Source: an uncultured archaeon
GTDB taxonomy: Archaea; Asgardarchaeota; Thorarchaeia; Thorarchaeales; Thorarchaeaceae
Assembly: GCA_964354495.1 (NCBI GenBank)
Contig: CAYHAA010000006.1
Coordinates: forward strand, 120,001 to 152,000
DNA length: 32,000 nt
Direction: 5' to 3'
In this document: positions 27,798-28,893 of the stretch, piece by piece
Layout of the letters: each line of letters opens with the position of its first letter
Numbering within the stretch: position 1 is the stretch's first letter
The notes under the pieces: generated by a model
Database searches by the model: none
What the model was told of the DNA's origin: nothing
The model's input: the letters and a program-made list of their open reading frames with translations, nothing else
Program-made: the position numbers and the translations under genes

Positions 27798-27918
27798 CCA
27801 TCCTTTGTCGTAATAGATTCACTTTGTTTGTGGTTCAGCCTCAGAGGGCCACATCCCGCGCGGACGTATCCGCCAACACAAAGGAATGGTCTGGTCACGG
27901 TATTCATACCGGACCAGA
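27798..27918 (-). ncRNA. Candidate structured leader RNA upstream of rpl15e
   Basis: 13-bp hairpin (27890-27918), GCGGA-UACG-UCCGC hairpin, and an enclosing stem with an alternative pairing onto the RBS. All pairings are manual. Confidence 0.45.
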
Positions 27919-27981
27919 TACTCCCAAAGAGATTCGCTTAAAGATGTAACGTTCTGGATGTCTCGATGCATGATTTGGATG

Positions 27982-28893
27982 CTACTTGAGTCCATTAATG
28001 ACCTTCTGAACAGTCAGCTCTCCGATTCTCACCTGTCCCTCTTCAGTGGACGATGACAGATGTGGGGATGCTACGACCTTCGGATGTTTCACTAATTGCC
28101 AGTCAGTGGGTGGTTCATTCTCGAAGACGTCAAGTCCTGCACCTGCGATCAGGCCTGCATTCAGGGCATCTAGAAGCGCCTTTTCGTCAACCACGCCGCC
28201 TCGTGCTGTGTTGATGAGGAATGCTGTCTTCTTCATCTTCTTGAGCTCTTTCTCTGCAATCATTCCCTTAGTCTGGGGCAGCATAGGCACGTGGAGTGTG
28301 ATGTAGTCCGCCTTCTCCAAAATAGTGTTCAGGTCAGATTTCTTGGCTCCAATCTCTTTACACGCCTTACTGATGTCGATGACATCATATGCAAGAACAT
28401 TCATGCCAAAGGCCTTCGCTCTCTTCCCGACTTCCATTCCAATCCTGCCAAGTCCCACTATACCAATGGTCTTCTGCCAGAGCTCAGTTCCGCTGAGTTT
28501 CTTCTTATCCCAACGTCCGGCCTTCATCGAGCTGTCTGCCTGTGTGATATTTCTGGCCAGTGATAGCATCAACGAGAAGACCATCTCTGCAACCGAAACA
28601 CTTGGAGCCTCCGGAGTGTTCTGAACCACCACTCCTTTTGCGTCTGCTGCCTTCTTGTCCACATTGTCAAGACCTACACCTGCCCTGACCACAAGCTTCA
28701 GCTTGTCTGCAGCATCGATCACCTCTTTGGTAATCTTGGTCGCACTTCTCACAACAACACAGTCGAATCCTTTGATTTGCTTCTCAATGGGTCCGTCCTT
28801 CTCCGCATTTCTTACAACAACTTCGAGTCCTGCAGCCTTGATTTTGGCTACTGCAGACTCCTCAATTGGGTCAGCAATAAGTACGCGTTTCAT
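27982..28893 (-). CDS. D-2-hydroxyacid / D-3-phosphoglycerate dehydrogenase (short form, no ACT domain)
   Basis: RAGVGLDNVD, GIVGLGRIG, NTARGG, LDVF..EP and SPH catalytic motifs. Confidence 0.92.
   Translation of the reverse strand: MKRVLIADPIEESAVAKIKAAGLEVVVRNAEKDGPIEKQIKGFDCVVVRSATKITKEVIDAADKLKLVVRAGVGLDNVDKKAADAKGVVVQNTPEAPSVSVAEMVFSLMLSLARNITQADSSMKAGRWDKKKLSGTELWQKTIGIVGLGRIGMEVGKRAKAFGMNVLAYDVIDISKACKEIGAKKSDLNTILEKADYITLHVPMLPQTKGMIAEKELKKMKKTAFLINTARGGVVDEKALLDALNAGLIAGAGLDVFENEPPTDWQLVKHPKVVASPHLSSSTEEGQVRIGELTVQKVINGLK

Follow-up and report, generated by a model that had tools for sequence, protein, structure and literature searches.

A candidate two-state leader of the eL15 ribosomal protein mRNA in Thorarchaeia, built around the RF03144 motif

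We analysed the leader of rpl15e, the gene for ribosomal protein eL15, in a stretch of 32,000 nucleotides (nt), here called the window, from a metagenome-assembled genome (MAG) of a member of the Thorarchaeota (Asgard archaea); all coordinates are those of the window. The leader lies in the 193-nt gap between a 2-hydroxyacid dehydrogenase gene (28893-27982, minus strand, stop at 27982) and rpl15e. It is best explained as an mRNA 5′ leader in which a core of the Rfam family RF03144 is combined with a two-state platform specific to Thorarchaeia, a reading to which we give a probability of about one half. Taking its parts separately, we consider it fairly probable that the 5′ arm of the platform functions in sequestering the Shine-Dalgarno (SD) sequence, and a true switch between its two states, A and B, falls slightly short of an even bet. 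The two-state reading is consistent with everything that was computed, and is plausible though unproven.

The identity of the core is close to certain. When the whole window was scanned with cmscan, the only Rfam 15 family to match was RF03144 (eL15-Euryarchaeota ribosomal protein leader), at 27873-27827 on the minus strand. The score is 47.9 bits where the gathering threshold is 33.7, the E-value is 1.4e-7 for the region or 2.8e-6 at the scale of the window, and the alignment spans the model untruncated from position 1 to 48 (of 48). The match agrees with the original prediction, made from the sequence of the window, of an rpl15e leader of the described eL15 family on this strand; all the coordinates given there are correct on the sequence. 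For comparison we aligned 43 distinct Thorarchaeial leaders and computed the mean column identity block by block; a wider set comprised 86 distinct leaders from 16 genera and metagenomes. The RF03144 structure places these elements on the core:

27827-27873, minus strand: core eL15 leader motif (RF03144 match), column identity 0.98
27873-27860, minus strand: P1, hairpin GCGGA-UACG-UCCGC
27857-27856 / 27833-27832, minus strand: P2, G27857 and G27856 with C27832 and C27833
27855-27851 / 27836-27834, minus strand: asymmetric internal loop GAUGU / GAA
27850-27847 / 27840-27837, minus strand: P3, hairpin GGCC / GGCU
27831-27827, minus strand: A-rich unpaired 3′ tail ACAAA

P1 is a hairpin that had already been recognised in the original prediction at the same place. 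Among the 43 orthologues P1 is paired in 100% and P3 in 93%, the outermost P2 pair is usually unformed, and the fifth P3 pair covaries between C-G and U-A. The same prediction had drawn a stem UGUGG/CCACA and overlooked P3. That stem can indeed be drawn, but it uses the same bases as P2 and P3 and so competes with them, and it is invariant except in two of the 43 orthologues, where it is broken; as no variation supports it, and P3 shows the C-G/U-A covariation, the Rfam pairing is to be preferred. The 3′ end of the motif lies 38 nt upstream of the rpl15e ATG on the same strand, a position shared by the orthologues, so that the motif sits in the 5′ untranslated region of a PF00827 gene, reaches its score over the full model and has the RF03144 structure. 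The family was named and described as one of Euryarchaeota, to which the Thorarchaeota host does not belong. We nevertheless file the leader as a member of RF03144, lineage being a descriptive rather than a structural criterion.

RF03144 was introduced as a candidate eL15-binding leader restricted to Euryarchaeota (Eckert and Weinberg 2020, BMC Microbiol 20:130, PMC7247131), with eL15 binding and autorepression predicted for the family and its members standing as candidates without a binding experiment. The same paper calls uncertain the resemblance of the motif to the eL15 contact in 23S rRNA, a bulged-G module. The sarcin-ricin loop pattern of 23S rRNA was not found in the window MAG or in 22 congeners from the same genus, nor the 3′ end of 16S rRNA in the window MAG; rRNA operons are evidently unbinned in these MAGs, none of which has an assembled 23S rRNA. 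Folding of both strands had been proposed as a check with the original prediction, and here the 166-nt leader on its own gives modest values on either strand relative to shuffled sequences (minus, z = -2.1; plus, -49.5 kcal/mol, z -2.35). Because this single-sequence signal is weak, the case rests on comparison across relatives.

Compared with the RF03144 model, the Thorarchaeial leader adds about 65 conserved nt, namely a 5′ hairpin, an arm, two alternative partners for the arm, and a spacer. The blocks outside the core, in the direction of transcription and with their column identities, are:

27933-27953, minus strand: promoter-like block with consensus CGTTACAnCTTTAAGCGAAT and a TATA-like TTTAAG at 27942-27937, conserved in the 43 orthologues, 0.88
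the 14 nt after this block: 0.52
27890-27918, minus strand: 5′ hairpin by folding, 12 bp with a UGAA loop and one bulged U, 0.41
27878-27889, minus strand: 5′ arm CCAUUCCUUUGU, pyrimidine-rich and anti-SD-like, shared strand of helices A and B, near-invariant, 0.945
27874-27877, minus strand: linker GUUG, 0.91
27817-27827, minus strand: proximal partner ACAAAG-U-GAAU (helix A), near-invariant, its first base being the last base of the Rfam tail, 0.951
27809-27816, minus strand: variable spacer, 0.64
27798-27808, minus strand: distal partner ACAAAGGAUGG (helix B), near-invariant, including the SD-like GGAUGG 9 nt before the AUG (27788), 0.941
from the SD to the start codon: 0.60

At the same loci the PF01877 and Rpp30 proteins encoded downstream fall to 30-50% amino-acid identity, and set against this the block identities indicate that three elements beyond the Rfam model are strongly constrained. 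The arm as a repeated element was considered and ruled out, as CCATTCCTTTGTG, a 13-nt query that includes it, matches the genome exactly at one place only.

The original prediction held that the arm can pair either with the proximal partner or with the distal one, the latter covering the SD, and both pairings hold up. Helix A uses arm positions 27887-27878 and helix B 27889-27878, so that the two are mutually exclusive and B sequesters the SD. Among the 43 sequences 97.9% of alignment cells are paired for helix A and 97.3% for helix B, compared to 28-50% when the partner is slid by 1-3 columns. Both duplexes can form in all 86 distinct leaders, at -9.1 +/- 1.4 kcal/mol for A and -14.5 +/- 1.4 kcal/mol for B. 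With the Rfam pairs enforced, constrained folds favour B over A by a mean of 3.1 kcal/mol without the hairpin and 2.0 kcal/mol with it, B having the lowest energy in 35 of the 43 orthologues. An equilibrium model of the window, also with the motif enforced, gives P(helix B) = 0.93 and an SD that is at least 95% paired. In the constrained fold of the A state, U27876, U27875 and G27874 of the linker can pair with the 3′ tail of the motif (A27829 and A27828 among the tail bases). We also tried a composite fold, with the inner half of the arm on the proximal partner and the outer half on the SD, and rejected it at 7.7 kcal/mol worse than B; such a fold perhaps applies in genus g5, where helix A is shifted inward (L016).

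Several lineages suggest that pairing, and not sequence alone, is under selection. In the alignment, the sole freely variable base of the proximal partner (C, U or A) is the one predicted to bulge from helix A. Genus g5 replaces the proximal partner by AACACGAAG, AACAC-A-GAAG, AACAC-G-AAAG or AAGGAAU, and each replacement can still pair, in a shifted register, with an arm that has not changed, an argument that selection acts on the pairing and not on the sequence. Additionally, helix A gains an outer AUCG/CGAU extension in genus g36, and lineage-specific compensation is found in L268, L259, L056, L128 and L267 for helix A, and in L011, L230, L256 and L030 for helix B. In helix B the ACAAA upstream of the SD core changes only from A to G, at alignment positions 167, 170 and 171, which keeps a U-G pair; the A-U pair next to the bulge becomes G-C in L267 and, in restructured form, in L256, which belong to two genera; the helix is lengthened by CUCC/GGAG in genus g6; and L178 has lost the bulged base, leaving a perfect 9-bp helix.

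A number of results weigh on the other side. The helices are near-invariant, with double changes at one pair or none in the 43-sequence alignment, and permutation of the distinct combinations of arm and partner is not significant for either helix (z -1.1 for A, -1.3 for B), the weak covariation reflecting the almost complete lack of sequence variation in the helices. The duplex of the arm with the 3′ flank is only 1.5 standard deviations better than dinucleotide shuffles (z -1.5), base composition accounts for part of the complementarity of the pyrimidine-rich arm to the purine-rich SD region, and both helices are weakened in genus g10. The members of the RF03144 family are candidates, their binding of eL15 being a prediction. 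The standard spacing from TATA to start puts the predicted transcription start at or slightly inside the outer pairs of the hairpin. Finally, helix B stands at 93% in equilibrium, which makes an "on" state dependent on kinetics. The two-state switch of the original prediction is thus upheld as to its parts, with segments that are about 94-95% conserved and two helices that lie within a few kcal/mol of each other in leaders that can all form both, but not as to covariation of helices A and B.

How such a device might work can be outlined as follows. Without bound protein, helix A would form first during transcription, as its 3′ strand emerges about 20 nt earlier than that of helix B; it would close the motif and leave the ribosome-binding site free, and translation would be on. 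Helix B, which buries the SD-like GGAUGG, would be the more stable end state. Surplus eL15 would bind the core through the GAUGU/GAA internal loop and the conserved tail, as is presumed for the family. The tail bases AAAC (27829-27826) are unpaired in the Rfam model and present in lineages without the 5′ arm, for which reason they are probably part of the eL15 binding site, and in Thorarchaeia the last two of them are inner pairs of helix A. By virtue of this overlap, eL15 on the core and tail would weaken helix A and free the arm for helix B, hiding the SD. The switch-off would cover rpl15e and possibly the RNase P subunit genes behind it. With the motif ending 38 nt from the start codon, the protein is less likely to act by direct occlusion, and a platform that works indirectly is a sensible reading. 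We infer the direction of the switch, eL15 binding, the transcription start and operon co-regulation; the coupling of eL15 binding to the direction of the switch may also be the opposite.

Other lineages supply context. According to Table S3 of PMC7247131, 18-19 nt separate the end of the motif from the start codon in Haloferax and Thermococcus, with mapped starts 33 nt before the motif in Haloferax volcanii and 6 nt before it in Thermococcus kodakarensis. The Thorarchaeial leader shares P1, P2, the GAUGU/GAA loop, P3, the A-rich tail, the position upstream of rpl15e and the presumed eL15 ligand with euryarchaeal RF03144, and differs in its Asgard host and in its distance of 38 nt, rather than 18-19 nt, to the start codon. 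Bathyarchaeia-like leaders are minimal, with a TATA-like GGTTTATTTT about 27-30 nt before the motif, no 5′ extension, and an SD GGUGA 12-20 nt after it. Their 5′ and 3′ flanks, serving as a negative control, show no complementarity (duplex z +0.14), as expected if the 5′ flanks are not transcribed; against dinucleotide shuffles, closing-helix duplex energies give z -1.5 for Thorarchaeia, +0.14 for Bathyarchaeia and -0.6 for the others. The euryarchaeal flanks were compared using metagenome matches. In the minimum-energy fold of Halobacteria-like metagenome leaders (L144, L149, L151, L175 and L182) a 5′ hairpin CGCUGG/CCAGCG comes first, and behind it a closing helix GCGGGC/GCCCGY extends into the SD GGUG, an architecture similar to that of Thorarchaeia, although these closing helices are indistinguishable from shuffles at their high G+C; Methanosarcina-like leaders have a helix CCAGUUUCA/UGAAAC-CUGG adjoining the motif. 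These are single folds on few sequences. They suggest that SD sequestration by a 5′ arm may be a recurring design, and are suggestive of a common plan, a helix that closes the motif and touches the ribosome-binding site, which Thorarchaeia would have split into a proximal and a distal version.

The alternative that survives best, though we consider it unlikely, is a single closed state, in which only helix B is functional, the SD is sequestered constitutively, and eL15 stabilises the whole fold in classical repression. Helix B is the predicted ground state in the window and in most orthologues as well as the stronger of the two duplexes by the values given above, and the Halobacteria-like leaders appear with just one closing helix into the SD, all of which such a reading would explain. 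It would have the proximal ACAAAG-N-GAAU conserved for another reason, for instance as a protein-binding surface or a folding aid, and this fits poorly with genus g5, where the proximal partner is wholly changed yet complementary to the arm, and with the fact that the partner's one freely varying base is the predicted bulge.

Less probable again is that helix A is simply a basal stem P0 closing the motif, the complementarity of arm and SD being a by-product of composition and any regulation being steric or through mRNA stability. Closing helices can be drawn beside the motif in the Methanosarcina-like and Halobacteria-like leaders, the shuffle score of arm and 3′ flank is modest, and the overall covariation test on helix B is not significant. 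What such a stem leaves unexplained is the behaviour of the distal partner, that is, the conservation of ACAAA upstream of the SD core with A-to-G changes at three positions only, each retaining its pairing with U, together with the A-U to G-C change in L267, the restructured G-C in L256 and the CUCC/GGAG extension in g6.

The 5′ end of the leader bears on a further alternative. The TTTAAG noted in the original prediction is present and lies inside the promoter-like block, which we take from general archaeal promoter geometry to be a transcription factor B recognition element and TATA box (BRE/TATA); the block may illustrate a strong BRE/TATA in Thorarchaeia. The hairpin begins about 19 nt past the TATA-like block in the window and 17-26 nt (median 21) after TTTAAG across orthologues. 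It had been described as having 13 bp, but the thirteenth pair would close a loop of 2 nt. A hairpin is found at this position in all 43 orthologues, although from genus to genus the sequence is very different, with 6-15 pairs and ending 0-7 nt before the arm, and scores a mean z of -3.6 against dinucleotide shuffles (37 of 43 below -2). Its outer pairs differ in a compensatory manner between clades (UGAC/GUCA, GGUU/AACC, GAUU/AAUC), which makes it probable that the whole stem is within the RNA. By promoter geometry the transcript probably begins at the hairpin or a few nt from it, and the hairpin might then shield the mRNA or stack coaxially on helix B.

Just past the stop of the upstream gene (27982), a stable hairpin with a T-rich stretch behind it could also be read as a terminator or attenuator, made of the hairpin and the U-rich tract CCAUUCCUUUGUGUU and acting on the 2-hydroxyacid dehydrogenase gene or on the leader itself, and poly-U stretches after archaeal S15 leaders are noted in PMC7247131. 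We regard this as very improbable, given that the conserved promoter-like block separates the upstream stop from the hairpin, that a simple scan of the region for bacterial-type promoters and terminators found nothing, and that the tract is invariant in sequence rather than merely U-rich and is complementary to two conserved partners. The caveat attached to the original prediction, an antisense non-coding RNA transcribed from the plus strand, is hardly credible even though that strand folds about equally well, since RF03144 matches the minus strand alone, the P3 G-U that is invariant in 43/43 pairs only on the minus strand, the helix B substitutions that give U-G pairs (15 + 4 + 1 sequences) would produce A-C mismatches if read on the plus strand, and the conserved promoter block and the gene are both oriented minus.

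The two-state leader, if it operates, would act on a conserved gene cluster. The genes downstream are:

27788-27204, minus strand: rpl15e, ribosomal protein eL15 (Pfam PF00827, E = 1.3e-70)
27174-26716, minus strand: PF01877 RNA-binding protein gene (Pfam match)
26711-26022, minus strand: RNase P Rpp30 gene (Pfam match)
26025-25699, minus strand: Rpp14/Pop5 gene (Pfam match)

Presumably rpl15e is the regulated gene and its product eL15 the ligand. By sequence comparison the protein shares 95% identity with one from a Thorarchaeota MAG, and each of its 25 best relatives carries the label Thorarchaeota or Promethearchaeota. The PF01877 gene follows rpl15e after 29 nt and Rpp30 after a further 4 nt, with a 4-nt overlap between Rpp30 and Pop5; the three genes are probably on the same transcript as rpl15e. 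All 29 orthologous loci that have enough sequence, from every genus sampled, retain the order of dehydrogenase, leader, eL15, PF01877 and Rpp30; Pop5 after Rpp30 was seen in the window. Protein subunits of RNase P and a ribosomal protein may thus be expressed together under the eL15 leader. An upstream open reading frame, with its AUG in the hairpin loop, was rejected, as the hairpin sequence varies and the frame is not conserved. The 58-residue open reading frame at 27995-27819 (minus strand) starts upstream of the promoter block and spans the block, the hairpin and the motif; it likewise lacks conservation and is almost certainly not a gene.

Motifs of the RF03144 type are present in 80 of 87 Thorarchaeia genomes and 16 of 17 genera, and in 79 of the 85 genomes of the window's taxonomic family. 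In other families of the same phylum, none of 24 genomes has a match above the cut-off and one has a match just below it. This is genome G053 (1.2 Mb), in which a variant motif, GGAUGUGCCC...GGGUGAACC at L103:301-352 on the minus strand, scores 33.5 bits and lies directly upstream of the eL15 gene without the 5′ extension. Bathyarchaeia have RF03144 at 42-43 bits, above the cut-off and upstream of eL15 (L077:528-577, L078:528-577 and L091:519-568; also L104 and L105), and Bathyarchaeia-like copies were the commonest true matches in a metagenome scan. One Thermoplasmata MAG has a marginal score of 35.5 bits, and 151 genomes of the phylum of G061 (roughly 1-Mb genomes) gave no match to RF03144. 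These sequence matches mark the family name "Euryarchaeota" as too narrow. No mention of Thorarchaeota, Bathyarchaeota or Asgard is made in the parts of the supplements of PMC7247131 that were examined, and none of the literature searched connects ribosomal leaders with Asgard archaea or Thorarchaeota. Two of the genomes have two eL15 leaders each. Those of G229 (L254 and L258) are of different genus-level types (g7-like and g1-like), indicating a mixed bin, and those of G252 (contigs C288 and C503) both lie at contig ends, which suggests an assembly duplicate.

The proposed platform has counterparts among well-known systems. Translational riboswitches with anti-SD and anti-anti-SD platforms likewise have one strand with two exclusive partners, one of which hides the SD, and likewise an "on" helix that comes first in transcription and an "off" helix that is favoured thermodynamically; their ligand is a metabolite, whereas here it is presumed to be a ribosomal protein, the setting is archaeal and the switching is only predicted. 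A similar picture emerges for bacterial ribosomal protein leaders, such as the pseudoknot/hairpin of Escherichia coli rpsO bound by S15 and those of L20 and S4, in which a protein binds the leader of its own mRNA and blocks initiation of translation, with alternative folds. Their sequences and folds are unrelated to the Thorarchaeial leader, and they are experimentally established, whereas the Thorarchaeial leader is a prediction. The 5′-terminal hairpin can be compared to stem-loops that stabilise mRNAs from the 5′ end, for instance that of E. coli ompA; in both it is structure rather than sequence that is conserved, at the 5′ end of the transcript (here a predicted one).

We thus describe a known RNA family in a lineage where it was previously undescribed, together with a new conserved extension specific to that lineage. 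In bacteria the autoregulation of ribosomal proteins by way of mRNA leaders is well understood; in archaea it has barely been studied, and the eL15 leader is a computational candidate. That the motif extends to Asgard archaea and Bathyarchaeia implies that it is either very old or has evolved repeatedly around a conserved protein surface, and eL15 is a protein shared with eukaryotes, here in Asgard hosts. Unlike the minimal euryarchaeal form, the Thorarchaeial leader offers an explicit and strongly conserved candidate platform, which predicts two competing helices, one of them hiding the ribosome-binding site. As a tentative and rather speculative proposal, Thorarchaeia may have made of an ancient pan-archaeal eL15 motif a riboswitch-like device under kinetic control, in which a decoy helix forms first (on) and the SD is paired upon capture of the tail by eL15 (off), coupling the supply of ribosomal protein to the expression of rpl15e and of RNase P subunits. 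If true, this would be the first archaeal protein-sensing leader with an explicit anti-SD/decoy platform, and Asgard archaea would have their first proposed cis-regulatory RNA mechanism.

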